From NCBI GenBank assembly GCA_003427395.1, contig BFEA01000007.1, positions 4,471,248-4,535,247 on the forward strand: a DNA stretch of 64,000 nt, given 5' to 3'. Positions 4,429-36,339 of this stretch are shown piece after piece (positions within the stretch are counted from its first letter, which is position 1; each line of letters opens with the position of its first letter). The stretch is from Chara braunii (Eukaryota > Plantae > Charophyceae). Under the pieces are notes generated by a model, which was not told the origin of the DNA, did not search any database, and saw only the letters and a program-made list of their open reading frames with translations. Made by a program: the position numbers and the translations under genes.

Positions 4429-4431
<3 letters not shown>

Positions 4432-4503
<72 letters not shown>
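4432..4503 (+). repeat. (GA)n microsatellite in LTR (counterpart ~33806-33862)
   Basis: Visible dinucleotide run. Confidence 0.95.
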
Positions 4504-4507
<4 letters not shown>

Positions 4508-4649
4508 AAGAATAGGTGAGAGAGAAAAAGAATAGGTGAGAGGGAGCAGAGAGGATGAGAGCGAGGGAGAGATAGGAAGAGAGAGAGGGAGAGAAAGATA
4601 AGGAAGGAGAGGGAAAATGGCAACTAGTCCTAATCAAATCATTCGTCCG

Positions 4650-4792
4650 TAATAGCAGCCAAATGTCGGCCACTCATCCCACAGTTGTAGCAGCCAAATG
4701 CCGGTCACCCATCCTGCAGTTTTAACAGCCAAATGTCGGTCACCCATCCCACAGTTGTAGCAGCCGAATGTTGGTCACCCATCCCACAGTTG
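4650..4792 (+). repeat. ~34-bp tandem repeat (GTAGCAGCCAAATGTCGGTCACCCATCCCACAGTT); also ~4998-5100 and ~34005-34145
   Basis: 3-4 adjacent copies at each site. Confidence 0.9.
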
Positions 4793-5328
4793 AAGAACAA
4801 TTAAGTGTGAAACGGAACACTACAACACACATGATTTTGACAAGGTGAAGGTTGAATAGATGAAAGCACATGCTCATGAGTGGAAAAGCAAACAAGTGTG
4901 AAACGGAACACTACCACTCACATGGACTTGAGGGAGAGAAAGAGAAGGAAGGAGAGGGAAAAGAGCAACTAGTCCTAATCAAATCATTCGTCCGTAAGAG
5001 CAGCCAAATTTCGGTCACTCATCCCACAACAGTAGCAGTCAAATGTCGGTCACCCATCCCACAGTTGTAGCAACCAAATGTCGGTCACCCATCCCACAGT
5101 TGAAGAACAATTAAGTGTGAAACGGAACACTACCACACACATGATCTTGACAAGGTGAAGGTTGAATAGATGAAAGCACATGCTCATGACTGGAAGAGCA
5201 AACAAGTGTGAAACGAAACACTATCACCCACATGGACTTGACAAATTGAAGGTCGAACTAGTGAAAGCACATGCTCATGGGTGGAAGAACAAATAAGTGC
5301 GGAACGGAATACTATCACACACATGAAC

Positions 5329-6303
5329 GAGAGATGGTTAACCGGTGCATATATTTTCAGGTCTCCTTTCCAGGCAGTTCAGCCACTGTAGGTTACTACA
5401 CCACTTTCAGATTGTGTGTGAATCTATATATGGGGTTGCCTGAAACCCCCTTCAGGCAGTTCAACCACTTCAGGTTGATACACCACTTTCAGATTCCCTA
5501 CAGATCCATTGCAAATGGTGGGATGGGGGTACCTGAAACCCCTTTCAGAAGCTTCAGCCACTTCAGCGGTTTCAGGTCCCCACCTGAAATTCCTGAAATG
5601 ACCTGAAGTGGCTGAAGCTTTTGAAAGGGGTTTCAGGTACCCCCATCCAACCATTTGGATGGGGGTGCCTGAAACCCCTTTTTAAAAGCTTCACCCACTT
5701 CAGCAGTTTCAGGTCCCCACCTGAAATTCTTGAAATGACCTGACGTGGCTAAAGCTTCTGAAAGGGGTTTCAGGTACCCCCATCCAACCATTTGGATGAT
5801 GGTACTTGAAACCCCTTTCAGAAGTTTCAGCCACTTCAGCGGTTTCAGGTCCCCACCTGAAATTCCTGAAATGACCTGAAGTGGTTGAAGCTTCTGAAAG
5901 GGGTTTCAGGTACCAATTCCAACCATTTGGATGGGGGTACCTGAAACCCCATTTAGAAGCTTAAGCCACTTCAGCGGTTTCAGATTGAAATTCCGGAAAT
6001 GACATGAAGTGGCTGAAACTTTTGAAAGGGGTTTCAGATATCCCCATCCAAGCATTTGGATGCGGGTATCTGAATTCCCATTCAGAAGCTTCAACCACTT
6101 CAGCAGTTTCAGGCCCCCACCTGAAATTCATTAAATGATATGAAGTGGCTGAAAAAACAGACAGGAAAAAAAAAAAAAAACCTTGTCATGCAAACCACCC
6201 GAAACTTTTGAAATGACCTAAGTGTCTTTAGGCTATTTCAGCGGTTTCGGACCACTTCAGAATCTTTCATTCTGAAATTCTACGTGGTCGTTAACCGCGA
6301 GTG
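5329..6303. mobile_element. Non-autonomous DNA transposon (GGTTAAC-end family) with ~136-bp palindromic internal repeats
   Basis: Absent from the 5' LTR copy (34273-34290). GGTTAAC at positions 8-14 from both ends. 8-bp TSD ACATGAAC/ACATGCAT. Confidence 0.85.
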
Positions 6304-6311
6304 ACATGCAT

Positions 6312-7745
6312 TTGGCAAGTGAGAGTGAGAGTAGTGAAAGATCAACATATAAGAAGTTGAACAACTAAATGAGAACCGGAACACTACCGAGACTACAGAC
6401 TTGAAAAGGTGAGAGTAAGCACATACACATGAGAAGTTGAACAACCAAATGAGAACCGGAATATTACAAAGTCATGAACTTGACAAGATGAGATAAAACA
6501 CATACACATGAGAAGGTGAACAGCCAAATGAGAACCGGAACACTACTAAGAGTATGAACTTGACAAGGTGAGGGTGAAAGCACATACATATGAGAAGTTG
6601 AACAGCCAAGTGAGAACCGGAACACTACTAAGTCATGGACTTGACAAGATGAGGGAAAACACATACATATGAGAAGTTGAACAACCAAGTGAGAACCGAA
6701 ACACTACTAAGTCATGAAGTTGACAAGATGAGAGAAAGCACATACATATGAGAAGTTGAACAACCAGGTGAGAACCAGAACACTACCAAGAGTTTGAACT
6801 TGGCAAAGTGAGAGTAAGCACATACACATGAGAAGTTGAACAGCCAAATGAGAACCGAAATACTACTAAGTCATGAACTTCCCAAGATGAGAGAAAACAT
6901 ATACACATGAGAAGTTGAGTAACCAAGTGAGAACCAAAACACTACTAAGTCATGAAGTTGACAAGATCAGAGAAAACACATATATATGAGAAGTTGAACA
7001 AGTAATTGAGAACCGGAACACTACCAAGAGTACGAACCTGACAAGGTGAGAATAAGCACATACACATGAGAAGTTGAACAACCAAATGAGAACCGGAATA
7101 CTACCATGTTATGAGATTGACAAGATAAGAGAACGTACATACACATGAGAAGTTGAACAGCCAAATGAAAACCAGAACACTACTAAGAGTATGAGCTTGA
7201 CAAGGTCAGGGTGAAAACACGTACACATGAGAAGTTTAACAGCCAAGTAAGAACCGGAACACTTCTCAGTCATGAACTTGACAAGATGAGGGAAAACACA
7301 TACATGTGAGAAGTTGAACAGCCAAGTGAAAACCGGAACACTACTAAGTCATGAAGTTGACAAGATGAGAGAAAACACATACATATGAGAAGTTAAACAG
7401 CGAAGTGAGAATCGGAACACTACCAAGAGTTTGAACTTGACAAAGTGAGAGTAAGCACATACACATGAGACGTTGAACAACCAAATAAGAACCGAAATAC
7501 TACTAAGTCATGAATTTGACAAGATGAGAGAAAGCACATACACATGAGAAGTTGAACAGCCGAGTGAGAACCGGAATACTACGAAGTTATGAAGTTGACA
7601 AGATGGGAGAAAGCACATACATATGAGAAGTTGAACAACTAATTGAGAACCGGAACACTACCAAGAGTACGAACCTGACAAGGTGAGAGTAAGCACATAC
7701 ACATGAGAAGTTGAACAGCCAAATGAGAACCGGAATACTACCATG
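6312..7745 (+). repeat. ~80-bp tandem array (~18 monomers) with 8-mer higher-order period of ~637 bp
   Basis: GAGAACCGGAACACTAC recurs every 79-81 bp; variant order repeats at 6371, 7008 and 7644. Confidence 0.9.
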
Positions 7746-8465
7746 AGTTTGATCTTGACAAAGTGAAGATTGAACTAGTGAAAGCACATGTACATGGGTG
7801 AAAGAACAACCAAGTGTGAAACGGAACACTACCACATACATGAACTTGACAAAGTGAAGGTTAAACTAGTGAAAGCACATGCACGTGAGGGGAAGAGTCA
7901 TCAAGCGTGAAACGGAACACTACAACACACATCATCTTGATAAGGCGAAGGTTCAACTAGTGAAAGCACATGCACATGAATGAAAAAGCAACAAAGTGTG
8001 AATCAGAACACTACCACATGCTTGAACTTGACAAAACGAAGGTTGAACTAGTGAAAGCACACGCACATGAACGAAAAAGCAACCAAGTGTGAAACGGAAT
8101 ACTACCACATGCTTGAACTTGACAATATAAAGGTTGAACTATTGAAAGCACACGAACATGAGCGGAAAAGCAACCGAGTGTGAAACGGAACACTACAACA
8201 CACATGAACTTGACAAAGTGAAGATTAAACTAGTGAAAGTACATGCACATGAGTGGAAGGGCAACCAAGTGTGAAACGGAACACTCCAGCACACATGAAC
8301 TTGACAAGGTGAAGGTTGAACTAGTGAAGGCACATGCACATGAGTGGAAGAGCAACCAAGTGTGAAAGGAAACACTACAACACACATGAGCTTGACAAAA
8401 TGAAGGTTGAACTAGTGAAAGCACATGCACATGAGTGGAAGAGTCACCAAGTGTGAAACGGAACA
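7746..8465 (+). repeat. ~91-bp tandem array (also 4793-5328, 34146-34280)
   Basis: AAGTGTGAAACGGAACACTAC...GAACTAGTGAAAGCACATG recurs at ~91 bp. Confidence 0.9.
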
Positions 8466-10405
8466 CGACTTAACTACTATGTGATTGAAAGCATGGGCTA
8501 GACTAGATCAAAACCCAAGATTGGAGCATGACAAGCAATCAAGAATCAATTGGGACATCACGTACTAGTATGTGAATGAATAGTATGAACTAGACTAGAT
8601 CAAAGCACAAGATTGAAGCATGAGATGACCTAAGGAAGAATCGAGACATCACTAATTACTATATGAGTGAAAAACACGAGTTAGACTAGATCAAAACACA
8701 AGTTTGAAGCACGAGATCATCCAAGGAAGAAGCGGAACATCACCTACTGTCATGTGAGTGAAAAACATGAGTTAGACTCAGATCAAATCACAAGATTGAA
8801 GCATTAGATCAACCAAGGAAGAATCGGGACATCACCTACTACTATGTGGAGGAAAAGCATGAGCTAGACTAGAGAAAAACACAAGATTGAAGCATGAGAT
8901 AATCCAAGGAAGAAGCGGAACATCACCTACTATCATGTGAGTGAAAAACATGAGTTAGACTAGATCAAAACACAAGATTGAAGCATGAGATCAACCAAGG
9001 AAGAATCAGGGCATCACCTACTACCATGTGAGTGAAAAACATGAGCTAGACTAGATCAAAACACAAGTTTGAAGCATGAGACCAACCACGGAAAAATCGA
9101 GATATCACCATGTACAATATGAATGAAAAACATAAGTTAGACTAAATCAAAACACAAGTTTGAAGCTTGAGATTAACCAAAGGAAGAATCGGGACATCAC
9201 CTACTATTATATTAAAGAAAAGCATGAGCTAGACTAGATCAAAACACAAGTTTGAAGCATGAGATCAACCAAGGAAGAATGTGAACATCACCAATTACTA
9301 TATGAGTGAAAAGCATGAGCTACACTAGATCAAAACATAAGTTTGAAGCATGAGATCAACCAAGGAAAAATTTGAACATCACCAACTATCATGTGAGTGA
9401 AAAGCATGAGCTAGACCAGATCAAAACACAAGTTTGAGGCATGAGATCAACCAAGGAAGAATCAGAACATCACCAATTACTATATGAGTGGAAAGCATGT
9501 GCTAGACTCGATTAAAACACAAGTTTGAAGCATGAGATCAACCAAGGAAGAATCGGAACATCACCAACTATTATGTGAGTGAAAAGCATGAGCTAGACCA
9601 GATCAAAACACAAGTTTGAAGCATGAGATCAACCAAGGAAGAATCGGGACATCACCTACTACCATGTGAGTGGAAAGCGTGAGCTAGACTAGAGAAAAAC
9701 ACAAGATTGAGGCATGAGATCATCCAAGGAAGAAGCGGAACATCTACTATCATGTGAGTGAAAAGCATGAGTTAGACTAGATCAAAACACAAGATTGAAG
9801 TATGAGATAAACCAAGGAAGAATCGAGACATCATATGTGAAGGAAAAACATGAACTATACTAGAGAAAAACACAAGATTAAAACATGAGATCATCCAAGG
9901 AAGAAGCAGAACATCACCTACTATCGTGTGAGTGAAAAACATGAGTAAGAATAGATCAAAACACAAGATTGAAGCGTGAGATCAACCAGGGAAGAATCGG
10001 GACATCACCTACTACTATGTGAGTGAAAAACATGAGCTAGACTAGAGAAAAATACAAAATTGAAGGATGAGATCATCCAAGGAAGAAGCGGAACATCATC
10101 TACTATCATGTGAGTGAAAAGCATAACTTAGACTAGATCAAAACACAAGATTGAAGCGTGAGATCAACCAAGGAAGAATCGGGACATCACCTACTACTCT
10201 GTGAAGGAAAAGCATGAGCTAGACTAGAGAAAAACGCAAGATTGAAGCATGAGATTATCCAAGGAAAAAGTGGAACATCACCTACTATCATGTTAGTGAA
10301 AAGCATGAGTTAGACTAGATCAAAACACAAGATTGAAGCATGAGATCATCCAAGGAAGAATCGGAACATCACCTACGACTATGTGAGTGAAAAAGCATGA
10401 GCTCG
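8466..10405 (+). repeat. ~88-90-bp tandem array (~22 monomers)
   Basis: TAGACTAGATCAAAACACAAGATTGAAGCATGAGATCAACCAAGGAAGAATCGG recurs regularly. Confidence 0.92.
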
Positions 10406-18467: not shown

Positions 18468-19352
18468 CTAATCCCTGCTACAAGGGCTGGTCCTTTGTCG
18501 TTTAACCCCCTTTTCATCATTGCTTCTGGGGGATGCTTCGACGCCTAGGCCATAAGTCCGGATTTCGTTCAATTTCCTCATGATCAGCCATAGCTCTTCC
18601 TCGCTGAAAAAGTCTAGTGGTGTGAATGCTTTCCCTGCTGCCATCAACTTTCTAGCCTTGATGATCCATTCATGTTTGGTCACGCTGGCCCACTGCTCGA
18701 ACCAGTGGTTGGGTGTCAGCCCGAACTCATCCTCCCATCTGGAGGGTCCGTTCTTTGGACTGCCTGTCGATGATTGTCCTTCATTCGTAGGCTTTGAGAT
18801 CTCGTCCGCCTCATCCCCACTGCTGATTACAATGACCTCTTGTGCCTCATCCTCGCTCCCATCCTCATCCCTTGGTACTGGACTGAACTCACCCGCAGAG
18901 TTTTCCGGATTAAAGTTATACGGGATATCCATCCTTCTTTCGGGTTCGTCCCCAAAACCCGTATCCCCTCTTTCACAACTGGCATGCTTGCTTCTTTCCC
19001 AATCACGATGCACGCTTTCTCTTCCCGCGTCCCTTCTTTCACGACTGACCGGTTCGATCTGCCTTTCTTCACCCCCTCCCATACCAACGTCACACATACT
19101 TTCTTCCCTTCTTGCCTGTGGCTCTTGCTCCCCCGTCTCCTCCTCGGACAAGGGCTGCAACTTCTCACCTTCCTTAAGAGGCGAGGGTTTGCTAGCCAAC
19201 AACTTTCTCTTTCTTCTTCCCATTGTTCGTCTCCGCTGCGACCCAATGAATAATACCGGTTTTTGCCTGTCTCGTGGCCTCTCGACTCTCTGCCGCTCAT
19301 CTTCCAAGGCGATGTTAGCGTGGCTGACATCATTCTCGTTATTGAATTCCAT
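18468..19352 (-). CDS. Intact 294-aa accessory ORF in env position (NLS-like RRKRK, SIM-like EVIVISSGDE, Trp-rich C-terminal domain)
   Basis: Uninterrupted ORF from MEFNNEND, same strand as pol, preceded by a pyrimidine tract and CAG|G acceptor at 19376. Confidence 0.65.
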   Translation of the reverse strand: MEFNNENDVSHANIALEDERQRVERPRDRQKPVLFIGSQRRRTMGRRKRKLLASKPSPLKEGEKLQPLSEEETGEQEPQARREESMCDVGMGGGEERQIEPVSRERRDAGRESVHRDWERSKHASCERGDTGFGDEPERRMDIPYNFNPENSAGEFSPVPRDEDGSEDEAQEVIVISSGDEADEISKPTNEGQSSTGSPKNGPSRWEDEFGLTPNHWFEQWASVTKHEWIIKARKLMAAGKAFTPLDFFSEEELWLIMRKLNEIRTYGLGVEASPRSNDEKGVKRQRTSPCSRD

Positions 19353-19905
19353 CTTATTTTGTGTTTTCCCTGTGCCTGTCATGAAAAGGGAAACTGAAGC
19401 CCCAGTCCATATCCCCAAGCAGAACCCTCGCCCAAGCAATCGCAAAACCCCAAGTCCCATTCCCTTATGATACCGGAATTGGCCAAATTTTCAAGGGTGC
19501 GCCCCCTTGCCCAGTCTCTGGTCGTGCATCTCCATATGACGAGTCCCTCTATGCCCCATTCGAATCCCATGCGCCTTTTGAAAGGTCATGATATGTCGTT
19601 CCAGGCAGCCACCCCGATACCCTTCATCCCTTACGAAACTATGGTACAATAACCCAGGTTTTCATCCCCGTATCACCCTCCCCCAAAAAACTATGGTACA
19701 ATGCCCCAATCGCATTACCTAAACTCATGCAGTCCGTCCCCATAAGCACAGTCAAAACCCCTCCACACAAAACAAAACACATTGTAGGTAAGATTTCTTC
19801 GGCGCCTCAGTCGACCTGTTCCCTGTTTTCCTTGTCCTGAGTCTCTTGCAACCATTGCTCCACTGGGTTTCGGCTTAGGAATCTGATCAACAGTTGTCCT
19901 GAAAA

Positions 19906-21081
19906 TTACCCTTTTACCCTAGTACCATCCAAATCCTCAAACTCGAAACTGTTCATCCCCAGCCTCTTGGCGACCCGGTAGAGCCCCTTGAATCTTCTCC
20001 CCAGTTGTCCTGACCAGGTACTTTCTAATGCAGAATTTCTGACTAGGACCATTTCCCCCACTTGCAGTGGTTCTTTTCTTATGTTCCGCAACTGGTCCCA
20101 TCTTGCTTTGTCCTTCATTCTGCTATCCAGAACGCAGCTCACCACTTCGTCTGTGGCCTCCTCATTTTGGATAATCTGTTAGCACCTGACCTTAATTAAC
20201 TGTTCCGTCGTCAAGCGCGGGTCATCATTCAGTTTATTCCAAGTCGGTACTAGAGCTTCTATTGGGAAATCGATTTCCCTCTCATACCATAATTCAGCCG
20301 GAATACATCATGTGGTCCATTTTGGAGTCATGTTGTCTTCGAACACTGCTTGCTTAAGGTACTTAGGCCAGTTCCCAAGGTCGTCAGCTGCTAACTTTGC
20401 GATCGTGTTCTTAAGCGTCCGATGCCCTCTCTCCACGGGCACGTTAGCTTCCGGGTGGTACGACTCAATTAACTTGATGGGCACCCCAAGTCTTTTGCAT
20501 GTACTCAACACGTCCTGGTTCACGAATTTTATTACATTATCGGCTATAAATCCTCTGATAAACGGGTGCCTTAGGTAGAAGTCCTCAATCCATTCAGCTA
20601 CTGCCAGTCCCGTTTTCTTCTTAAGAGCTATTGCCTCCACAAATCCACTAAGATTATCCCTGGCGTCAAGTATGTACCTGTATCCTTTTGTATATACTAG
20701 TATAATCACGAGATCGAGGTGGACGAGATGTCCAGGTCCTAGCACTCGCGTTGGTCTCAAAGGCTCGAAGACTTGAGTCGTACGTCGCTCTTGACAGATC
20801 AAGCAGGTTTGGCAATACGTGGCGACCATACTCCCCATTCCAGGCCAGAAGTAAAGTGACACTATTTTTGCGAGGGTCCCTTTTGAGGAGCCCTGTCCTC
20901 CTGCCAACCCGTCATGCATCGCCAGAATTATGTTTACTTGCCTCGATCGTCCACATACCACCCTTCTAGGCATTAGGCCTTTCTCTCTCCTAAACAGGTG
21001 TCCGTTTTTTAGTACATACTTATCGGCTTCCTCTCTGGTCTTGAGGCTAACCTCCTGGGAATCCTTGTTTCCTACTAGCAA
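19906..21081 (-). pseudogene. pol: Integrase (HHCC remnant, DDE core, GPY/F-like C-terminus), disrupted
   Basis: HDGLAGGQG...CQTCLICQ, LVHLDL, FIADN, ERGHRTLK, FKGLYRV; stops and frameshifts; no chromodomain seen. Confidence 0.92.
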
Positions 21082-21256
21082 CAGTCCAATTGCTCTGAAG
21101 ATCCCATCGTATGAATGAATAAGAAAGAACGCCTTTTGATCCTGACAATTTTCTTGTCCATCTTGTGCTTGATTTACTAGGTATTGCTGCCGCTTTTGTT
21201 CTCAAGATTCAACTAAGCTCATAACCGACCCCGTCCTCCTTCTATTGCTAGTGTCA

Positions 21257-21939
21257 TTAGTTCTTCCTGAGGCCCCACAGTGCCACCCCACGAATCCTTC
21301 CTTCCTTTCGATCGGACCTTATAAGTGTTCCTTCCCTAAGTTTTGCCACCACTGTCGGAGATCCTTTCTCCAACGCCCTGATCAAAAACTCGTCGGAGGT
21401 GCAGGCAGGCTCTATCATTTCGTTATCAACCACCAGGTTCCCTCCCTCATAGTCGAGAAATGCATCGATAGGTTTCGCATCCTCTACTCCTTCTGGCATA
21501 ATGCATACTCTGCTCAAGCCATCGGTCATGTTCCTAAGTTCTGCTATGCGCTCGATCTTGTAATCAAACTGCCAAATGAGCCTCACCCATCTCCCCACGG
21601 TAGGGTCTATAGGTTTGTAATTCTTGCAAGCCCCAGCGATGTTTGTTCGATCTATCCTTTGGATGAACCTCCTTCCAAAGGGGTAGGCTTGGAAGGTCGT
21701 GAGGCAGTGAAGGACATCCAACACTTCCTTCTTGAACTGGGAGTAACGACGCTCAGCTGAGTCAGCGTTCTACTCTCGAATCTGATTGACCGCTCCCTTC
21801 CATCTTCCCCTCTTTGGATCAGGACTCCTCCCACAGTCAGTGGTCCCCCATCGGTCTCAAGTACAAACGGGCGACCTACCTCGTTGTTGAAACACGGAGC
21901 GGCCAGGGTGACTTGTTTTGACGTCAGGATGTCTTTCAA
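21257..21939 (-). pseudogene. pol: Ty3-type RNase H, frameshifted
   Basis: PFVLETDGGP-VGGVLIQ, RFESRTL, GRRF..RID, RWV..IWQFDYKIERI, N.TDGLSR. Confidence 0.9.
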
Positions 21940-23072
21940 GGTCTGAACGGCGACTTCTCATTCCTCCGTCCAATCGAGCGAACCCTCTTCGCGAATCATG
22001 GTCCGGATGGGCTCTGCTATCTTAGTGAATCCTTTGATGAAGATCCTCCAGAACCTCACGACCCCTAGGAAGACCCTTACCTCCGTTGTAGTCCGCAAGG
22101 GCGTCGACCATTGAGAAATTTTATCAATCTTCGTTGGGTCGGGCTTTCTTCCATACGACCCGTAACGGCATCCTATGAATCTATGATAGTTACTTTTGGA
22201 ACTGCCAGGATGATCTTGGGGCCACTAGCAGTGATGTTATATTCCAGAAACCTTCCGAAAAGTTCTTTAATATCCTGCTGGTGGTCTCACACAAATTTAC
22301 ATACCCCTGGTTGAATTTTCGTCTCATCCTTGTCTCGCGAACCCTTGATCGGATTGTCATCAATGTATGGCTCGCACTTTGCGGGGAACATATCTCCCGC
22401 AACTGCGAGCATCCTTCTTTGTGCTTTTGCCACGACATTGGTGAAGCCCATATGAGTCACTTGCATTTGCAATTGCCCTACCGAGGTATGCATAGTCGTG
22501 TAAGGTCTATCCCGGGCGCCCAGCGGGAGCTGATCATACCCAGAATAGAGGTCTATCAATGAATAAATGCTTCGTCTGGCGTGAGATTCTGCCAGCAGGT
22601 CTGCTTGAGGCAGTGATCCCGCATCTCGGATGATGACAACATTCAATTTCTGCAGATCCTGGATCCACCTAAGCGACTTGTTAGGTTTCCGGAATACAAA
22701 CCACTTATTTGCATATGGTGAGGCGGTGGACTCTGCAACTAAGGAGTCCATCTTTGCTCCAAGGAGTTTTATTACTTCCCCTGCCACCCCAAAGTCGTAG
22801 GCAGGCCCTTTGTCGTTCCAGCATTCGTGCTCGACTGTGTGGATCTTGACCGGGGGTATCAGCTTCGCATCTAGTCGTCCCTTTTGATGGTCGTTAAAAA
22901 CAAAAGCTAGATGGAATTCATGGCATGCTTCCTTGATCAGGCATGCCTCCCGTTCTGTCAAAAATCCTTCAACCCCTATCTTCATGGTCTTTGCTACCTC
23001 GTCTGGTATTCGATGCCCTTCTGTTGCCATTTTTTCCCTAATCACCCGGAGCACTTCCTCCTCCTTTTCCAT
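21940..23072 (-). pseudogene. pol: Gypsy reverse transcriptase, disrupted
   Basis: SPYANKWFVFRKPNKSLRWIQDLQKLN, YSLIDLYSGYDQ, MGFTN, PYIDD. Confidence 0.95.
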
Positions 23073-23125
23073 GGCTTCTTCCTTTGTTGTTTTTAGCAGG
23101 ACCGAGACAGGCTTGGCTTTCTTTC

Positions 23126-24368
23126 CTACTGGCTTGTACTTGCGAATGCTTCCTTCCAGGATCTTTCTCCTAAAAAATGAACGGCTGGAATTGCCCGTGG
23201 TGTCTCGACCATTCGAGGCTGGATACTGATCAATTTTCCATTTAGGCAGTAACCCCTTTGGACTTCTCCCTCAAACTTGGCGAGTGTGGTCGGGTTCACA
23301 CCCATTTTGTGGTACCTGATGACTTTGATGAGGTGCAGTAGGTCCGGAACTTCCAGTGTTATCCGGGCCTCCTCATCTCGGGCCTCCTTCGGTCTACGCA
23401 ACTTGGCTCCCAATTCGACCTCTGTCTCTTTCTCTACTACCATTACTCCTAGGGCATCGTCCTCATGTCTGCGCTTTTTCTGTGGTAGCCCCATTTTGAT
23501 CCACTCCTTTTTGTTGAATGCTTCTTCGATCATAATTTCTACCCTTTTATCTCATCCCTTTCATCCGCGCGAAGGCCCCCTTTCTTGCGCTCTCTTCAAA
23601 TGATGGTGACCATGTTGCTAATTTTCCCTTTGGCGTGTCCCCGCCTGTTCCAATGAGACGGAGCAGCTCCCCACGTCCTGTCACCGGGTCTTCTATGTCT
23701 ACCATGTATGTCCCATCATGCAGGTGCATTCCTATCATCTTCACATTTGCACACCAAGGTCTCTCAAGGATTACGTCGTGATCCATCTCGTCCATCACGG
23801 TCATCCGCTGGAAGGACCAAATTGACTCCCAGACCCCAGCTTTGACTGCCTACTTAGTAACATACCCAGAGAAGGGAATTTCCCCGCCTGCCCCTCGGAT
23901 GCTTCCAGTTGTTTCCTTATTTATTGGGCATCTCGTAGCCTTTGCAAAATCTTTCCTGATGAGCGTAATCTCAGCCCCGCCGTCTACCAATGTGTCAGTA
24001 TGGTGACGTCCGACCTGGACTTTCAACTTGCCTACAGGTAGTGCATGAAAACTAAGCTTCGTTCCGGGTGGCGCTCTCATAACTTCGCCGCCTTCCTGGT
24101 CGGGCAGGCTTAGTTGGATGTCTGCGAAAACCTTTTCCAGGTCTTCTAGGTCTCTGGGAATCCTTTGAAGGTTGGCGGCCTCTTGCGGTGCCTCTTCCTC
24201 CTTTTCCTCCCCCTGCGGTTGCGGTCCTTCCTCTACTTCTATTCTTTGTCTTGTCAGCAACTGCCTGAGGCCTTTTAGGAGCCTAGGGCTTGCCTGCAAC
24301 ATGGTTTGAAACGAGACCGACACCATGGTTTCTAGCAGTTTGTTAAGGGTGTCGTCGATCTCGAGCAT
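23126..24368 (-). pseudogene. pol: Retropepsin-like aspartic protease and spacer, disrupted
   Basis: LVDGGAEITLI active-site motif, IRGAGG flap, DVILERPW (ILG.PW-like). Confidence 0.88.
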
Positions 24369-24601
24369 AGCCAGAATAGGGATCTGGTACCGAAACTTCT
24401 TTTTCGTCGAGGTTGCTTTGTCTATCGGGGCTTCATCTCTAGGCTTACCGTAAACCCTTTCCTATTTCTGCGCCTCAGTTTCCTGCGGTGCTCCCGGACC
24501 ATCCCCTACATCTTCCATGACTGCGTCCTTACGTTTACCCGGTCTCGGTCGTCGCTTTCTAAGATAAAGTTGACCTGCGGTCCGCGTCCTCGTGCCTGTT
24601 C

Positions 24602-26361
24602 CTAGACAAGATCCGCCACGGTCTCGGCTTCTACCGTGGTGACGTCAAGATTGTTGAGTGCTATTACGACCCGGCGCATTCCTTCCGGGGAGTTCCAATT
24701 TACCTTCTCTCCTTGGGGACCTATGATTTTCCCTCGCAGCGTCCTAGAGCACCTTTTGTGCATGATATCGTGGTTGAGCTTTGGACATGCGCGCACATAG
24801 TGTCCAACCAGCGTGCAATATTTGCACTGCTTATTGGCTGAATCTCTTCTATTGATCCCTCGGCTAACTATTCCTGTCGGAGCCACAACTTCTTGTGGTG
24901 GTAAGGGGGGTCGCACCGCCTGGTTTTGCATCACCTGGGCTTGCATCACCATTAGTGCATTTTCTACCCTCTCGATTTTCCCATCTACCTCATGGACACG
25001 CTCATGCAGGCTTTCAATCCCTTTTTTTACCTTGTCAACCATCTTGCCGGTTAGGTCTATGACCTCTCCCTCCTTCAGCATGGCCAGCGAGTCGGTTACA
25101 ACCATCTTCTCCGCGATATCTGTTATGGTACTGAAGCCAACGTCCCTCGTGTTCAAAAACTTCGTGGTCTGTTGGTAGGCGGACATGATCTTATCCTTAT
25201 CAAATTCGGTGAATTGCCTGAGGAAGTACTTGCTCATTATCTGGTCGGTTACCCCCGGGATGCGCAACGCCATGAGAGTCAATTCCCTCAGGAAATCGTT
25301 ATATGTTGCAAAGTTCTTTCTTTGCACCGCGGCCAGCTCTGTCTCCGTAGCCATTTTCTAGGCCGCCAGATATTTCCGCATCATTATGTCCCTGGCCTCC
25401 TTCCAGGATCCGCTGGTTGCGACAATAAACATTATATCCCTCCCTAGGTTCAATGACACATGTTGCCCTAAGTGTTCCATCTTCTCTTCCTCACTCCACT
25501 TTAGAAGTGCTGCCAAGTTCTCATAGTCTATCAAGAATTTTGTGCGATTGGCCCCATCGAATGTCAGCTTCTTCTTGGCATCCGCCAAGTACCCCTGATT
25601 TTTATTTAGTGCACACGTGAGGAAGAACACCATTTTCTTAAGTCCCCCATCGGTCCCTCTTATTCCACCAGCGTTGTCGGAGCCTTGTTCTTCCTTACCA
25701 GCCCCCGCCCCTTCTCCGGGCTTTGTTGTTCCTTCTTGGTCGAACCATCCTAGCACCCTCTATCTTAAGCTCCAGAGCCCCTCGCACCCCCTTGCGATTA
25801 TCGATGACACCGCTGGCCGGCTTGCCCCGCTATCTATGGCCGGCGGGTAGGTAGTCTTGGAGATTTTGTTTTCTCCTTTCTTTTCTTGGTTGGCGCCTCC
25901 CTATGCTCCCCAGCCGTATCCTTCTTCCTTTTTATGACATCATCTCGGCTTCCCCGCCCCTGGTTTGTTTCTTCATTCGGCCTTTCTCCGGCGAAGTCCC
26001 CCTCTCCTTCGTTCATCATTTCCTCCAAGAGTTTTGCTTTATATTTCGTCGTTCTCCTTTCTATCTCAGCTAGTTTCTTCTGGGTGTCCGTTAGTCTCAC
26101 CTTCTTTGACAGTGCGCCCTCAGATGCCCGCCGCGCCGGATTCCCTTTATTCTTATCTCCTCTAGTTTCCTGAGTTCCTCGTTTACTCCGTCCGACTTTT
26201 TTGGAACTTTCCCCGGTTGTCACGTCCTTTCTTCCCTCTGTAGTCCCTTCTGGATTTGCCGACTCTCGGTCCCTTACGGATCCCTCGTTCTGTTCTACGT
26301 CTTTTTCCATGTCCTGACTTCCTTTGCGCCGCAGGTTCCCAGCCTCTTCCTCTGTCGCCAT
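24602..26361 (-). pseudogene. gag: Gag with CCHC zinc knuckle, split by stops/frameshifts
   Basis: CKYCTLVGHYVRAC (C-x2-C-x4-H-x4-C), FDGAN.TKFL.DYE capsid-like motif, charged N-terminal segment from ATG 26361. Confidence 0.88.
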
Positions 26362-26408
26362 CCTTTTCTAATCCTGCACATAGAATTTTTCTTTTCGAAA
26401 ATGGCCAG

Positions 26409-26525
26409 TTGCTTTCTATGGGAGCCGTATTCGCTCTATTTGCAGGATTCTACTATTGGATAGGCAAATCTCTTGACTTCAATATCCAGAAACCTTAGGT
26501 CAAATTCATTTTTGGATTACTTTTC
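26409..26525 (+). pseudogene. cox1: Mitochondrial cox1 fragment (NUMT), ~117 bp
   Basis: Translates LSMGAVFALFAGFYYWIGK then, after a 1-nt frameshift, LQYPETLGQIHFWITF, matching plant COX1; Trp is TGG. Confidence 0.92.
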
Positions 26526-26942
26526 ACAGCTCTCCAGATTTCCAGACCCTAAGGTTCTCCCTATCTTTGCCATTTCGATATTTTTTTTGTTTTATATTGG
26601 TCGTGGCAGGCTTATCCGTCTCTTCTCACTTTGCGGGGTACCGCTTGTCTTTTCCTGTCGGAAAACCTGCTGCCGAGGTTTGGTGTTTTGTCACTACAGC
26701 GCCTCGGTTCTAAGGTGGTGTGTCCATGGTGGGTGGACCCTCCTTTCGAAAATGACTTTTTGCCTTCCCAACCTTTGGATACCCCTAGCGCCCTTGGTGG
26801 TAATTGCCATCCTAGTCCCTTCCTGGCACACCCTTAGATAGAGTGGGGTCCAGCCACTATTCTCCGCAGGTCGCTATTCTCGCTTTCGTTTTTATCATTT
26901 TCTTGCTAGACTTTACCTCTGCCACCCTCCCCGATATTTTTC

Positions 26943-27726
26943 TCACACCGGTTCCTCAGGCCGGTCCTGTTCGTTAGGTTCTACGAACAGGTTAGCCACC
27001 CCCGCAAGGTAATTTTCCCCCATTCCTATTTCTCTGATAATTATTGACTCGTATTCTTCAAAAGCCAGGCGTGGCGCCCCGAATATCAGGATCTCGATGA
27101 GTTCTAGTAATTCACGGGTCTGGTTTTCCCAAAACGGCCCGTGTCTTACCGACACGTCATAAAACATTCCCGTTGTTTGTGGTTGGAAATGGTGGATCCA
27201 GGTTAGGGTTGAGTACACCAAGTCCCTCGCCCTCGAGAGGCTGCCGAATACCAGATCGATCATGAAGCGGGGTACTTGACACCGCAACCCTGCCATCGGG
27301 ACTCTGAATTCTCGCCATCCTCCTACTTCCCCCCGAGTTCTTAGTCCCACATTTCTTCTCCCCCGGACTTCCTAACCTATCCGATTTAGTGCCCTAGCCG
27401 CCCTCCGAAAGATTCGCAGCAGCCCATGCCCTAGTGCCACCTCGGTACCTAGCATGTGCCATCCAATTTCCGGTAGATACACGGTCCCCGTCACCCTCAG
27501 GTCGGTGCATAAATCGTCTCCTGGTCCCCTGTTGAATCTCATACCGCTCCACATATATTCTACCATCATGAAGGTGGTCCCGCCCTAAGGTCACAACTCT
27601 CCATTCCGTTTCAAGTCCTCAGACTTCATAGCTTGTCGGGAGCGGTACCTCGCATTCGTTACTGCCTTCCGTGGGTGGTCGAGGATGCGTGGGTCGTCGC
27701 GACGTTCGGGTGCGTCTCATCGCCAT
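26943..27726 (-). pseudogene. Accessory paralogue D (unknown family), disrupted
   Basis: MAMRR...EVPLPT; GTVYLPEIGWH; GGWREFRVP; YDVSVRHGPFWEN; EIGMGENYL. Confidence 0.75.
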
Positions 27727-27868
27727 CGCCAGTAGGTGGGTTCCTGCATAGTTCAGACAGAAAGCGAGTTCCCCTTATTCCATCCGCTCCCTCGGTCATT
27801 GCTAGCTATCCTCCTGCTTTCTTACCCCATCCTTTTTGTCACCCTTGGTTTTCTTTTCCTTTCTCTTA

Positions 27869-28641
27869 TCAGCCTACCTCTTCCTCCGGTGACTCGAACA
27901 AATGATAGACATCGTCTAGGTAGGTCATTCCGCGATTTACTTCGTGCCTAATGATTTCCCACATGGTCTCATCACTTATTCGCAAAATCCCTTGTCTAGT
28001 AGTCACGGCCGCCCGTAATATACACAGGACTTCATATCCCGGTTCATCCTCAAAGGGTCCCATTTTTAGGAAGGTCCGATAGTACTCTCGATATACTGAT
28101 ATTTCTTCAAAGCTTAGCCTAGTCAATGCGGCTACCGCCTTCTCAACTCGTTTCGCGCCTCCCATTCGTCTTAGTAGGAAGGTGGCAGGGTCATCCGAAC
28201 GATCTCGGTTGGCAGGTCAAAGGTTCCTGCCATGACAATTCCTACTTCCGCCGTTACATTGTCCCGTTCCAGATCCGTGAACTCAAACCCTTCTCGCCAG
28301 GTTATTTGCCATGCTCCTTTGAACATTCACAAGGGGTCACCTCCGGAGGCCAAGGTGATCCCAAAGGTCTACCATCCTTCCTCTGACAAGTATAGCGATC
28401 CCGCGGCATGCACACGTTCTGGGAGATCCAAATTCACGCCCCCGAATGCCCCTTTCGCACACCATTCCATTTCCACTACTAAGTATACTGTGTCTTCCAC
28501 CAACTCTACCCCTACCCAATCCATTATCGGGTTGCTTACCCCACTTTTTGCTGGCAGACTCATCTCAAACCTGCCGTCCAATGTTCTTGGCGGCAGAATC
28601 CCGCGAGGTCTGTCCTCCCAAAACGTCATTCGCCGAGCCAT
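27869..28641 (-). pseudogene. Accessory paralogue C (unknown family), disrupted
   Basis: MARR...FEMSLP; GSLYLSEEGW; YYRTFLKMGPFEDE; EVNRGMTYL. Confidence 0.75.
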
Positions 28642-28842
28642 CCTCTGATGTCGCTCTTCCTTGCTCTCCTTTGTTCGACTGCTGCATCTACCAAGATTTC
28701 GTATTTTCCTAGTTTAGTCCTTCTGCGTTTCTTACCTATCGTACACTAGTTCTTGCCGCTATTCCCGCCCTGTACACATACAGATCCTTTCCCTCTTGCT
28801 GGTCGTTGACACCTCCTCTTGTCAGCTCGCTGGGCGTTAGGC

Positions 28843-29594
28843 TCATACCCATAGTACCTCGAACAATAGGAACACGTCACCTATATAGGAAGGGGTCGCT
28901 GCCACCTCTCGACGGAGTATTGCATCCCCGGTCTTGTCATCCACTTCGAGCCGGTCTTCCTTGAAAATTTTCAGGATCTCGACTACTTCCTTTGCCCTAT
29001 CTCCAGGGAAGGGTCCTTCCTCTAGCGAAATCCGGTAGTAAGCATCAGCCAATCATGCGAATCCTAAGTCCACCTCATCCAGAGACTTTGCCACCGCGCG
29101 GATATGTTCAAACCCGCCGAACCAATCTGCCACGAAGCGCAGCAACCAAGCTTGGACTAACTGGTACGGCAGCCTAAGCTCCTTCCATCCACCTATCACG
29201 ACCCTACTGTTCACAGCATCCCAACCTTTGTTGGCAAAGTCATAGCCCATGCCCTGAGTCCGGCGCTCGGCCTCCCTTAAGATCCACATCGGGTTTTGCC
29301 CGGATGCTAATGCTACACAGAACAGATGCCAACCCTTCTCCGACAGGTACACCGTTCCGAGGGCTTCCACATTCCCTTCGTCTATGTCATCCCATCCTTC
29401 CTCCTCCCTGACCGGATTCCATACCCTCTCTACCCATAGAATGACAATGCAGGCGCAATCTCCTCCTCTACCCAGTCGCAAACCGTCCCTTGCCATTTGT
29501 TTCTTGTCGGCAAGGTCATTTCTACCCCCCCTTCAAGTCGTCTTGGCGCCCATCCTCTAAACATTCGCTCCCTTACGCTCTGTCCTCTAGCCAT
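28843..29594 (-). pseudogene. Accessory paralogue B (unknown family), disrupted
   Basis: MARG...VEMTLPT; GTVYLSEKGWH; GGWKELRLP; YYRISLEEGPFPGD; EVAATPSYI. Confidence 0.75.
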
Positions 29595-29621
29595 GCCTGT
29601 CCCCTGTACAACGCCAACCAT

Positions 29622-30504
29622 TCACGCCGCCCATGAGCCCATCCCTCGGAAGTCCCAATCCTTAATCGCCTCATCCTCTTCTTCCTCGGTGAGATAGTCT
29701 TCTTCCTCATACCACAGGTCCTTTAGCCCCTCTAGAAATGTTTCCCCGATTGCCACATTCTTGTAGACTATTTTCCAGTGGACGGTGCTTAGGACAAACA
29801 CGTCGTCCGTGCAGAGACAGTTTAGTGTCTCGGCTAGCTCCCTCGCCCAGTTCTCTTCGAAGGGTCCCATCTCGACCGATAGACGGAAGAAGTCATGTCG
29901 GGCACCTTGGTACAGCCCGAGGTTCCTCATGGACTGGCATATCCGCACCAGCCTACTCCGGGTCCCGAAGACAGCATCCACCAAAAAGGGGGGCAACACA
30001 CATCTCATCGTTTTGACGGGACGCCTCACGCTCCCCCTATCCCCGAGTTCCACTCACACGTCTACCCTTTCCATTTCCATTTCTGCCTGTTGACATGCGG
30101 CTCATACAACCTCTCTTTCCTCCTTCCTAAGCCATTCGTCCGGCATAGTTCCTAGTACCAAGTCTATGACTATAGCGTTCTCCCCTTTTTGCGACAAGTA
30201 GAGTCAATTAGTAGACCCACCCTCGGGCTTCCACCGTCCCTCGGAACTCCAAATCCATTAGGCTTGGCGACAACCTTGTCAGACTGACCTTATTCCATAT
30301 CGTTTCTATCCAAAGGAATGCATCCTCCTCGTCCAGCATTACGGTTTGATAGGCTGGCTCTAGATCTGTCCACGTTCCTTCTTTCGAGAGAACGACCGAT
30401 ACCCCATCCTTTACATCTACCGGCATTTTCGGACTGCTGGTATAGATCGGGGATGACAAGTTGACAACCACATCTTGTTTGCAGCACCCGACCCCTGCTT
30501 CCAT
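29622..30504 (-). pseudogene. Accessory paralogue A (unknown family), disrupted
   Basis: LWIETIWN, VEARGWVY; PPFLVDAVFG; FFRLSVEMGPFEENWAREL; NVAIGETFL. Confidence 0.72.
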
Positions 30505-32149
30505 AAAAGAGGCACCGAACGGCCCCTCCCGTTAGGTCAACCCTCGTCCTAGACGAGAATTATTTCAGACCCCTCATCCGGGTCTTCCTACTCTACTTCC
30601 CCATTTTTAAGTACCACCCCTCCATAGTACACTCAGTCGGCCAGCACTATCCAACATTCCTTTCTTTTGGTTCTGTTCCGACTGACCTCTATCCTGCCCC
30701 CTTTCCATCATCTCTCACTCGTGTGGACTGACGTGGGGAGGTGGGAATAGACTAGAATTACAGCCTGCACAACAGTTCGGCCTCAATTAACCTTTACAGA
30801 GGGGGAATACGAAGGAAAAAAATTCAGGCAATCTCACATACGGGTCGGTCATCTCCTCACCGGCCTTCTCCAATATGGTCTCTCCGCTGGTACTTTCGGC
30901 AGAGTTTTATCCCATACCTCAAGCGCAGCTCAACCGTCGCGAGCGAGGTACCAAGGCTCCGGCACAGGGTGTTACCCCTCTCCATTCACCCAAAATACCC
31001 CATCCCGTCTTGCCGCTCTTGCACACCTCGTTGGTACCGGGAATCACCCCGCGCACCCCGTTAGGAGCAAAAGTCAGTCGTCTGGGCATTCACTTTCATC
31101 GGTCCGATAAGAATCAGCCTTTCCCATGCCTTTCCGCGAGAAGCTACTAATCGTCTTCGAGGCTTCCTCCTTGCCTCGCATGCAATGGTCCTCCCCCGCC
31201 AGTCAACAGGCTAAGCCCCGTGTGAGGAAACGTTTCGCACCCCGCCTGGGTAAGGGCATCGATCTATGCTCGGACCGCCCGGGTGAGAATGCTACTAATC
31301 AACCGGCGTGACAGACTCCCGTCCGACAGCTCGGTGGCCTGACCTCCACACACGAAACCCGACGAACTTCAAAGAGAGCGACGTTTCTCACTCCCACACC
31401 AGCTGGTGCAGACCCATCCTTTCCTTCCGAAAGGCAGGACACTCAGTTCCCCACAGGCAGATCACAAGTCCCAAGCGGGACACACATAGAACAAGTGTCT
31501 TTCCCTTAGTGCTCCCAACGCTTTCTACCCATGTCTCACAGTTTTCTCTCAGGACTGTGCGTGCCGCTCTCCCCTAATTTCGATACATATTGGCTGGTTC
31601 CTTTTCGTGAGCATCTTCAAGGGTGAGCTAGTTTTCTTTGGAGTCTAGCAACTCCCTTCATTCCCTTTTTCTTCTTTCGTGTGTCTTTTTATAGGGTAAG
31701 ATTGTTCCTTCTTGATGACCCTTGTGTTCATGTAGGTTCCTTCAAGCATTTCAAGTGTATAGTGCATGAGTCCGCTGGGCTCAAAGAAGAAGAGAGGAGG
31801 GTACCCACTCGGTCGGATCACTCCACCGCGGGATTTTTATTGGACCCCGGCCGAAGCCGAAGGACCAACTGCCTGCCAGGTAACCTGCGACTCGCCCAAG
31901 GCTTCCCGGACTGGCGAACACCAGCACCGAACGAAGGAGGGCTAGAGCCATTCCACAAGGAGATGGTTAATCAAGTGCTCAACATGCATGATATACCTCC
32001 AGGTCTGGCCATGCCATGCGCCCAGCCACTCTCAAGTCTGATTCTTTCAAGGGGTAGAGCAAGCACAAGTCCAATTTCCTCATCCTTAGTTGTGTACACG
32101 GCCAAGCGTAGGACGCCCCCTTCGGAATCGCATGGGTCAGTTTAACCCT

Positions 32150-32168
32150 ATACCCGACATCTCCACCC
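32150..32168 (-). promoter_or_regulatory. Primer-binding site complementary to tRNA-Ala 3' end
   Basis: Plus strand ATACCCGACATCTCCACCC versus recalled plant tRNA-Ala 3' end ATACCCCGCATCTCCACCA; 4 nt inside the LTR edge. Confidence 0.8.
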
Positions 32169-32172
32169 TTTT

Positions 32173-33801
32173 TGTAGGGCCAAACCCCGGTAGACTTTCG
32201 AGCCTTGGTCAACCCCACTGCGGGTCCCAGTTGGCTCGGTCCACCCACGCTCATGCTCAGGGAGCGGGCCGTTCGCCGCAGGGTCACCTCCACCTAGTGT
32301 TTTGAGATGGATGGGGGCGGGTCATCGCGCGAGAGGGCTTTGACATTGGGGATGTAGTTCAACCCTCACGCCGGGTGGTAGTCTCGCTGGTGATTTTCGC
32401 AAAAGCAAATTTTTTATTCTTGATTATGTTTGCAGGCAATTGCTCCTTCTAATACTCAGGCAGTCCAAGAAGGTTTATTCAAAATTTCTCTTCTTTATGT
32501 GCGTAGGCTAAGCGTCATCCTTAGGCCATGCACCATTTTCCTAAACACAACAGTCCTACGACATCATCCGGGTGCGGTACCGCCGTCTTTCCCCTAGCCC
32601 CCCGCCTATTTATTTTTTTTGTTTGACACATGCATCCCGTCCATAGTTCCGTTGCCTGCCCTTCAACGGAAAAATTTCCTAAAATTAAATAATCATTCTA
32701 TCGTAAAATTACCATCTGAATTTTAAAATTTCATTTCATCTTAAAAAATATCATTCAAATTTTAAAATTTTTCATCTGACTTGCAAACTTTCATTCCAAA
32801 AATAGGGTATCCCTTCTTATTTGGACTGCATTTTAGAGATGGAATGAAAGTCTGGATGAGTTCATGAAATATTTTAATTGGGCTGTCATTCTAAGTAAGG
32901 ATTTACAATCATTAATAGGTTAATCCAATCCAAATTAGAAGATATTTGTTGTAGTGGAATGAAAATTTAATTAAAATATTTCATAAACTCGTCCAGGCTT
33001 TCATTCCATCTTGAACAAATAGATGTAGTTGGAATGGAAAGCTCATATTTAGACGGGAATGTATCAGATAAAACTGAAAATTTTAGAGTTGGACAAGCAT
33101 TGGAATGATAATTTATTAATATGAAGGATTTTTTTTATGGAATGTTTTTTCAACTTTCATTTCTTGTGGGAATTTTTCTGTTGTTACTCTTTCCGGGCTT
33201 TCACGTTGCATGCAAAAAATCACTCCACTCTTTCATCATGCAAGGCCACGCCCCTCCTTCGATCCTTTGCCCAAAGCATCTTACACCAAGACCTGTCGCG
33301 GTAGAGTTTACACTGGGGCCTAAGGCCCCTCCACTCCTTCACCTCTCCCCCCTTTCGCCTGCGTGTCCGTGACCCAGTCCCGCTCAAGTCATCCCAAAGA
33401 GCGAAGGCAAAGACCGGTACAATCCTCTATTGGGGTCAACATATAGCCCTTCCCGCATGCCTACTTTTCCTTCGATGCTTTATCTTGCCCCATTCCTTTT
33501 GTCAAACACAACCAAGCTCTCTTCTTTTCATAGTCATGCAGTCCGGGTTCTGGTTGAGTCAACTGACCTTGCTTCAAGTTATACTTTTTCCCGGACTTTG
33601 CCTCCTCTCAGTCTTTCAAATGTCCTTCCTCTTTCCTTCTCTACGGCACAAGGGACCGACAACCCTTCCCTTGCCCTCTTTCTCCACCAAGTGACGACTG
33701 TTTTCTTTCACCGTTCGTTCCCTGTCACTGTAACAAGGTGAGTGGTGTAGGGTTATGTTTACGCCAAAGGGTGTAGGAGAGAGAGAGATAGCGAGATGAG
33801 G

Positions 33802-33873
<72 letters not shown>

Positions 33874-34934
33874 GAGAGAGATAGTAGGTGAGAGGGAGGA
33901 GAGAGGATGAGAGCGAGGAAGAGATAGGAAGAGGGAGAGAGAAAAAAAAAAGAACGAAGGAGAGGGAGAAAGGCAACTAGTCCTAATCAAATCATTCGTC
34001 CGTAGTCGCAGCCAAATGTCGGTCACCCATCCCACAGTTGTAGCAGCCAAATGTCGGTCACCCATCCCTCAGTTGTAGCAGCCAAATGCCGGTCAGCCAT
34101 CCCACAGTTGTAGCAGCCAAATGTCGGTCACCCATCCCACAGTTGAAGAATAAATAAGTGTGAAACGGAACACTACCACTCACATGAACGTGACAAAGTG
34201 AAGGTCGAACTAGTGAAAGCACATGCTTATGGGTGGAAGAACAACTAAGTGCGGAACGGAATACTACCACACACATGAACTTGGCAAGTGAGAGTGACAG
34301 TAGTAAAAGCTCAATACATGAGAAGTTGAACAGCCAAATGAGAACCGGAGCACTACCACGAGTACGAACTTGACAAGGTGAGAATAAGCACATACACATG
34401 AGAAGTTGAACAACCAAATGAGAACCGGAATACTACCAAGTCATGAACTTGACAAGATGAGAGAAAGCACATACACATAAGAAGTTGAACAGCCAAATGA
34501 GAACCGGAACACTACTAAGAGTATGGATTTGACAAGGTGAGGGTGAAAGCACATACACATGAGAAGTTGAACAGCCAAGGGAGAACCGGAACACTACTAA
34601 GTCATGAACTTGACAAGATGAGGGAAAACACATACATATGAGAAGTTGAATAGCCAAGTGAGAACCGGAATACTACTAAGTCATGAAGTTGACAAAATGA
34701 GAGAAAGCACATACATATGAGAAGTTGAACAGCCAAGTGAGGACCGGAACACTACCAAGAGTTTGAACTTGACAAAGTGAGAGTAAGCACATACACATGA
34801 GAAGTTGAACAACCAAAAGAGAACCGGATTACTACTAAGTCATGAACTTGACAAGATGAGAGAAAACACATATACATGAGAAGTTGAACAGCCAGGTGAG
34901 AACCGGAACACTCCTAAGTCATGAAGTTGACAAG
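32173..34934 (-). repeat. 5' LTR remnant (U5 side), truncated at 34934
   Basis: Roughly 90% similar by eye to 3313-6965, with the same repeat arrays. Confidence 0.88.
32664..33183. mobile_element. AT-rich MITE with ~16-bp TIR and 2-bp TSD (TT), possibly CACTA/CMC-like
   Basis: Absent from the 3' LTR at ~3802; ends CAACGGAAAAATTTCC ... GGGAATTTTTCTGTTG. Confidence 0.8.
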
Positions 34935-36237: not shown

Positions 36238-36339
36238 CAGAGAGATTATGTTTGTTCATACTGAAAAAATTGATTAACCATCTTATTTATAACGAGAACA
36301 GTATTAGAAACGCAAATTTTGAAACTTCATACCCCTGAC

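Follow-up and report, generated by a model that had tools for sequence, protein, structure and literature searches.

Four anciently duplicated genes lie between leader and gag in a decayed Ty3/Gypsy retrotransposon of Chara braunii

Among plant Ty3/gypsy retrotransposons, Ogre elements of the Tat lineage carry a single extra open reading frame (ORF), ORF1, between their 5' long terminal repeat (LTR) and gag. Multi-ORF genomes are also found in complex retroviruses and in the Caulimoviridae, and the polycistronic pregenomic RNA of the latter is read by reinitiation. Here we describe a 64,000-nucleotide (nt) stretch of Chara braunii contig BFEA01000007.1 (hereafter the window), in which a minus-strand Ty3/Gypsy element, identified by its LTRs (blastn) and its pol domains (Pfam), hosts a cassette of four units, U1 to U4, between leader and gag. 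With a probability of roughly 0.75, this is a four-cistron accessory cassette of a Chara-specific Ty3/Gypsy family, of which the window contains an old, dead copy; the cassette proteins probably assist the element's own replication without being enzymes.

The cassette resembles Ogre ORF1 in being extra coding sequence on the sense strand of a giant Gypsy element of the green lineage, located after the 5' LTR and ahead of gag and conserved family-wide. Unlike the single ORF of Ogre, it comprises four paralogous cistrons over 3.6 kb. No land-plant protein was among the profile-search matches that were checked, and no direct sequence comparison with Ogre ORF1 was made. With complex retroviruses and Caulimoviridae the element shares several small accessory cistrons on a transcript with gag-pol relatives, and a tight stop/start junction (TGAATG, U1/U2); it differs from them in that there is no homology and no known transactivator, and in the position of the cassette ahead of gag. 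The literature searched contained no description of extra ORFs in Chara retrotransposons, and none of several paralogues arrayed ahead of gag; the family may be described in the Chara genome paper of Nishiyama and co-workers (2018).

According to PMC7264820, extra ORFs form an established class in plant LTR retrotransposons and mostly lie after pol; upstream additional ORFs (aORFs) are also mentioned there, with reference to Steinbauerova 2011. The downstream extra ORFs treated there are env-like in Athila and Bagy2 and antisense in Grande, RIRE2 and Retand (PMC7264820). As characterized there, such ORFs are present in most copies, are conserved about as well as the other proteins of the element and have no homologue outside transposable elements (TEs), and the Chara cassette is like them in these respects. 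Unlike them, each being one ORF 3' of pol, it lies 5' of gag and is a four-member array. Further, polycistronic nuclear transcripts of green algae are translated by leaky scanning (PMC11291117). Both are green-lineage cases in which a transcript has more than one ORF; in contrast to the algal transcripts, each upstream unit of the cassette contains 20-27 ATGs, a number that makes leaky scanning implausible, and Chara is a streptophyte and not a chlorophyte.

A preliminary description, made from the window sequence alone, had claimed four tandem paralogous units at 26943..30504 with colinear motifs and with similarity at the protein level only. To define these units, they were rebuilt from minus-strand stop-to-stop ORFs between 30531 and 26943, with an X placed at each frameshift and stop. 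The four units emerged as predicted, all on the minus strand: U1 (29622..30504; 289 amino acids (aa), acidic, with an acidic tail), U2 (28843..29621; 259 aa), U3 (27869..28641; 257 aa, starting with MARRMTFW) and U4 (26943..27726; 261 aa). All four are broken in the window copy. U1 contains a frameshift near 30204-30220 and in-frame stops at 30104-30102 and 30056-30054, and its terminal stop (29624-29622) adjoins an in-frame ATG at 29621, which forms the TGAATG junction with U2. In U2 a frameshift at about 29439 and an in-frame TGA (29055-29053) precede the terminal TGA at 28845-28843. U3 is interrupted by in-frame stops at 28371-28369 and 28329-28327 and by a frameshift near 28210, and U4 by a stop at 27621-27619, a frameshift near 27585 and a stop at 27374-27372 ahead of its terminal stop (26945-26943). 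At position 28329, where the window U3 has a stop, 17 of 17 RNA reads of other copies have a sense codon, and this stop is therefore private to the window copy.

When the rebuilt units were compared by blastp, all six pairs proved significant, with 22-31% identity over 182-259 aa and E values from 1e-7 to 8e-27. In order of decreasing similarity these are U2-U3 (31% over 251 aa, E 8e-27), U2-U4 (27% over 226 aa, E 2e-21), U1-U2 (27% over 232 aa, E 4e-17), U1-U4 (24% over 250 aa, E 9e-15), U3-U4 (26-27%, E 3e-12 to 7e-16) and U1-U3 (22% over 187 aa, E 1e-7). In Smith-Waterman alignments with 200 shuffles per pair, the observed score was reached in 0 of 200 cases (z 14.7-37.9). In a tblastn search of the whole window with the raw fragments, the only noteworthy matches were the sister units (E 3.8e-13, 3.8e-12 and 6.2e-8, for example). 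Likeness between units at the DNA level is absent, the best blastn match being 37 nt long with E 0.008. The motifs are colinear in all four units and include GTVYLSEKGWH, GSLYLSEEGW and GTVYLPEIGWH, further GGW[KR]E..P, and finally GPFEEN, GPFPGD, GPFEDE and GPFWEN. The 'ARGWVY' noted in U1 turned out to be a GTVYL-type motif that a frameshift interrupts, and in intact U1 relatives the sequence is ...ARGWVYLSQDGE. U1 to U4 are four anciently duplicated genes between leader and gag.

Relatives of the units were sought in protein collections. The longest U2 frame had one match, the C. braunii hypothetical protein P0002 (226 aa, 60% identity). A HMMER profile built from P0002 and the window fragments was scored against 1.84 billion representative proteins and retrieved 61 proteins at E<=1e-3, 40 of them at E<=1e-30; ten of the matches were looked up, and each proved to be a gene model of C. 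braunii. A second, word-indexed search yielded 46 matches, 45 of which are from Chara braunii; P0024 (252 aa) stems from a 1349-nt Logan contig. No land plant, other alga, fungus or virus was present among the checked profile-search relatives or the word-indexed matches. In the ESM Atlas the U2 type scored at most 0.83, and the U1 type reached 0.92-0.93 with Basidiomycota clusters that have no Pfam families. The latter matches are a lead only, as no such relative was found by HMMER.

By hmmsearch, 121 unit occurrences were located in 92 proteins. Trees were built on 36 and on 65 sequences, and in both of them each window unit falls into a clade of its own together with C. braunii sequences. 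The clades comprise 27 sequences for U1, 12 for U2, 12 for U3 and two for U4, with support values in the Shimodaira-Hasegawa-like approximate likelihood ratio test (SH-aLRT) of 100, 99, 91 and 99, respectively. The trees also hold a U3-like sister clade of nine sequences and a divergent pair, P0055/P0059. Gene order was equally uniform: 82 of 91 gene models are colinear with the order U1, U2, U3, U4, gagN, gagC, protease (PR), reverse transcriptase (RT), RNase H (RH), integrase (INT) and a post-pol ORF, and the remaining nine look like nested or chimeric models. Among the models with at least two unit types, 17 of 18 are ascending, and the adjacent pairs U1-U2, U2-U3, U3-U4 and U4-gag were all found. 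Since orthologous clades and the same order recur in other C. braunii copies, the cassette is, on this comparison, a feature of the element family and not a quirk of the window copy. The old paralogue array upstream of a Gypsy gag, kept at the protein level, which the preliminary description had proposed, is supported by the recurrence of the same types in the same order in other copies.

The unit did not resemble known domains. No Pfam family was detected in eight window fragments (E<=0.01) or in five single-unit proteins (E<=1), and in 29 longer relatives Pfam recognized only RT, RNase H, integrase, zinc-knuckle and Macro domains, all of them outside the unit. An AlphaFold2 model of P0024, computed from a 31-row alignment, reached a predicted local distance difference test (pLDDT) value of 80.8 and a predicted template modelling (pTM) score of 0.75. 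It consists of a short disordered N-terminal arm, an alpha/beta domain (strands 19-21, 24-29, 38-46, 52-61, 76-85, 128-135 and 148-153; helices 87-98 and 104-122) and a five-helix bundle (162-247). Modelling of the N-domain alone was less confident (pLDDT 64.5). In Foldseek searches with the P0024 model nothing was found at E<=0.001, either in the PDB (best match NurA, E 9e-3, template modelling (TM) score 0.14) or among the viral protein models of BFVD (best E 0.047, TM 0.12), the comparison that bears on 30K-type movement proteins and other viral proteins; NurA was absent from the VIA top rows. The closest systems with which the predicted fold was compared are chimallin, the shell protein of the phage nucleus, GNAT-like alpha/beta domains and AAA+ lid-like helical bundles. 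The domain had gone unrecognized in the preliminary description, and it stayed so after the profile searches and the AlphaFold and Foldseek analyses, which gave Chara-only relatives where these were checked and no significant structural match. None of the three outcomes named in that description as contradicting it was encountered: insignificant pairwise alignments, absence of the ORFs from other family copies, or a match to a known host or TE domain inserted secondarily.

Alignment columns conserved at 75% or more hold P, G, W, L, F, A and V plus the charged residues E57, E204 and R230-E231. The last three of these are located in the helical domain or variable between types, and no acidic triad or other catalytic signature common to the four types was found among the conserved columns. 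The conserved acidic catalytic residues that RNase H-like nucleases of the NurA or terminase type have on the central sheet were not found. A duplicated gag domain was discarded, as hhalign of the unit profile gave a probability of 0.0 with gagN and of 0.1 with the gag core. Designed 'Pizza' propellers in the PDB matched with E 1e-6 when a 7-row profile was used, with 0 stretches passing alone; since the match dropped to E 0.19 with the 31-row profile, it is regarded as fortuitous and due to a short repeated motif. The isoelectric points of the U1 to U3 types are acidic (4.2-5.6) and those of U4 relatives basic (9.3-9.6).

Conservation was determined as the median identity of relatives to the window in high-scoring segment pairs of at least 80 aa. 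The medians are 71% for U1, 56% for U2, 54% for U3 and 62% for U4, and 70% for gagC, 46% for gagN, 74% for PR, 80% for RT, 70% for RH and 71% for INT. By this measure, which is a proxy for purifying selection, the units are kept about as well as the known proteins of the element. The same figures bear on the effector role, in anti-silencing, repeat binding or antagonism to host defence, that the preliminary description had suggested, here in the form that the four paralogues are diversified host-defence antagonists, such as silencing suppressors, each with a different host target. Four paralogues that have diverged to 22-31% identity and have all been kept would suit such a role, counter-defence functions of TE accessory proteins are conceivable, and evolution is quicker in U2 and U3 than in the gag core (56 and 54 versus 70). 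However, the conservation of U1 and U4 is close to that of gag-pol, which does not resemble arms-race turnover, and no similar viral protein model was found in the BFVD search above; a role as defence antagonists is considered unlikely.

Gene boundaries were inspected in the gene models and in the window. A Met-Ala-Arg (MAR) start is common to all unit types (MARRMTFW, MARRRTF, MAIRRARMS, MARELEL, MARWLSP). Among 17 short single-unit gene models, 13 are of the U1 type, and nine of these 13 share an end in ...WDF, eight codons ahead of the window U1 stop. Multi-unit models exit a unit early and re-enter the coding sequence a few codons before the next MAR, and they never run from a C-terminus into the next unit, as a predictor must behave if stops intervene. 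The spacers are 27-200 nt long and purine-rich (0.58-0.63) and contain several stops, with six in-frame stops in the U2-U3 spacer of the window copy. Taken together, these features of the sequence favour four genes rather than one polyprotein. The opposite assumption, that readthrough yields one large polyprotein with four repeats, which the protease of the element then cleaves, could invoke the in-frame ATG that adjoins the window U1 stop and the fusion of units in several gene models. Yet the MAR starts are kept in all types, the ...WDF end recurs in the short U1 models, six stops separate U2 from U3, and the fused models themselves skip the C-terminus and stop of each unit and re-enter before the next MAR, which leaves the polyprotein a very unlikely arrangement. 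Hardly tenable is a capture of host genes by transduction without use to the element: LTR retrotransposons can take up host genes, according to PMC7264820, and a captured cox1 fragment is present in this very element, but no homologue outside Chara TE contexts was found in the search of 1.84 billion proteins, and the order is fixed across diverged subfamilies, whereas transduced genes are described in that paper as occurring in one or few copies.

For expression, raw oligo-dT (poly(A)) RNA-seq reads of the same species were matched to the window at 90% and 80% likeness, with 6-13% of each run read. At 80% likeness, depth was 15-37x over the leader (45-67x over both mate orientations), 9-22x over U1, 0-3x over U2, 2-7x over U3 and 4-6x over U4. 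These reads showed no splice joint within the cassette, nor any that links the leader with a unit or with gag, at a depth that is too low to exclude splicing. The sole joints in the RNA runs are within the leader, namely one contig that skips 110 nt and a back-step of 3 nt. The splice acceptors that the preliminary description had associated with the cassette were not borne out, either by the purine-rich spacers or by the RNA reads at this low depth.

If the element does possess a four-cistron accessory cassette, the four proteins would be made from its transcript not by leaky scanning but by reinitiation, internal entry or undetected splicing, and the U1 to U4 products would act in trans for the element. 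Most likely, the three acidic paralogues and the basic one would cooperate and serve Gag-RNA particles or host partners as a scaffold or adaptor, because four differentiated types have long been kept, in a fixed order and with complementary charge. A more far-reaching version sees in the element a complex Gypsy genome with an unseen fold, non-canonical polycistronic translation, and acidic and basic paralogues joined in a hetero-oligomeric shell or scaffold that is required for replication; in this full form it is distinctly unlikely.

Several observations speak against an accessory cassette of four cistrons. Few RNA reads cover the cassette, and their depth varies with DNA copy number, so that neither dedicated transcription nor translation follows from them. 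The four units are together in none of the single gene models, which are automatic and often chimeric, and no intact full-length copy was seen, the window copy being broken and the relatives being gene models. Some models run from U1 directly to the divergent U3-like type; judged from these models, a three-unit subfamily is possible and four units may not be universal. U2 and U3, at 56% and 54%, are less conserved than the gag core at 70%. Finally, a test of codon positions gave no information: among the few variants listed, 11 of 26 in the units (p 0.22) and four of 13 in gag are at third positions.

The remainder of the element, on the minus strand throughout, was delimited as follows. The 5' LTR (32173..34934) was found by blastn against the 3' LTR and by reading its boundary, its upstream end being uncertain or truncated; its terminus at 32173 reads ...GGCCCTACA, and loose ends of RNA reads fall at 32172/32173, the border between 5' LTR and leader. 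The 3' LTR extends over 3313..8470, with tandem arrays that may run on to about 10700, and its terminus at 3313 reads ...GGCCTACA. The two LTRs are in direct orientation, are 87-92% identical (blastn) and both end in ...CTACA. Because of this degree of identity the insertion is judged to be old, an age that fits the many breaks in the copy. Both LTRs are very long and packed with tandem arrays (units of 79-80, 91, 9-15 and 10 nt), the copies of which are far more numerous in the 3' LTR than in the 5' LTR; about 520 nt of the 5' LTR (32663-33184) have no counterpart in the 3' LTR. The leader, or 5' untranslated region (30505..32172), spans 1.66 kb from the LTR to U1 and contains 33 ATGs in the window copy.

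Downstream of U4, a purine-rich spacer (26365..26942) leads to gag (24602..26364), which starts with MATEEE at 26364 and is broken by one frameshift and one stop. Its N-terminal extension (26364-25858) is rich in K, E and R, and the core carries a CCHC knuckle, visible in ORF 24602-25357. The broken pol (20308..24461) is made up of protease (24461-23850), RT (23270-22287), RNase H (21769-21257) and integrase (21201-20308), as assigned by Pfam. The corresponding matches are gag-asp_proteas (E 1.5e-4), RVT_1 (1.8e-5), RT_RNaseH (4.2e-5), Integrase_H2C2 (6.9e-13) and rve (9.4e-6); individual pol scores remain under the Pfam cut-offs because the window copy is broken. The order gag, protease, RT, RNase H, integrase along the minus strand is that of Ty3/Gypsy. 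For a chromodomain at the C-terminus of integrase, the mark of the chromovirus branch of Ty3/Gypsy, three frames of 19298-20400 (minus strand) gave 0 Pfam families at E<=0.01, in a region so degraded that a decayed chromodomain is possible. A post-pol ORF of 340 aa (18468..19490, minus strand) has no Pfam family and recurs after INT in nine C. braunii gene models with 33-56% identity; from this recurrence it is a second conserved extra ORF of the element family.

Some further observations concern the element and its surroundings. For the region 23850-24461 (minus strand), immediately ahead of the protease, there is a match to Pfam DUF4100, at the C-terminal end of that family, with E 7.9e-4, which is under the cut-off; DUF4100 is linked to retroelements in fungi. 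A mitochondrial cox1-like piece of about 110 nt (26412-26523, plus strand) lies antisense within the U4-gag spacer and reads ...SMGAVFALFAGFYYWIGK...; it matches plant COX1 chains with E 2.8e-6. RNA and DNA depth spike exactly at this fragment, and loose ends lie at 26412 and 26523; reads that stem from the genuine mitochondrial gene would give this pattern. The long region from pol to the 3' LTR contains tandem repeats of 26 nt in eight copies (14163-14448) and of 59 nt in seven copies (15849-16383). Outside the element, long direct repeats about 10-12 kb apart (44400-47200 versus 55600-59250, and 50802-51101 versus 60939-61238; 83-97% identity) look like another repeated element or a segmental duplication downstream of the Gypsy copy. 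The region 36000-40000 differs from the remainder of the window in being very AT-rich (GC content 0.29-0.35), with diverged repeats of about 90-100 nt (six copies, 65-73% identity). Among the gene models, P0053, P0039, P0022 and P0078 fuse a unit or pol with protein kinase, WD40 propeller, Macro or DUF659 domains, and these fusions are probably prediction chimeras in a TE-rich genome and an annotation hazard.

For the annotation of C. braunii the finding matters in that more than 90 public 'hypothetical protein' models carry a unit or the gag-pol of the element, several of them fused to host-like domains. Most known extra ORFs of LTR retrotransposons occur singly and lack an explanation; the present cassette amounts to 3.6 kb and four kept paralogues ahead of gag. 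Its conservation is similar to that of gag-pol, its range, as far as a set of 1.84 billion proteins can tell, is confined to Chara, and its predicted fold is confident but has no recognizable relative. It thereby raises the questions of how four long upstream cistrons could be expressed and gag still be translated, and which activity would be worth quadruplicating.

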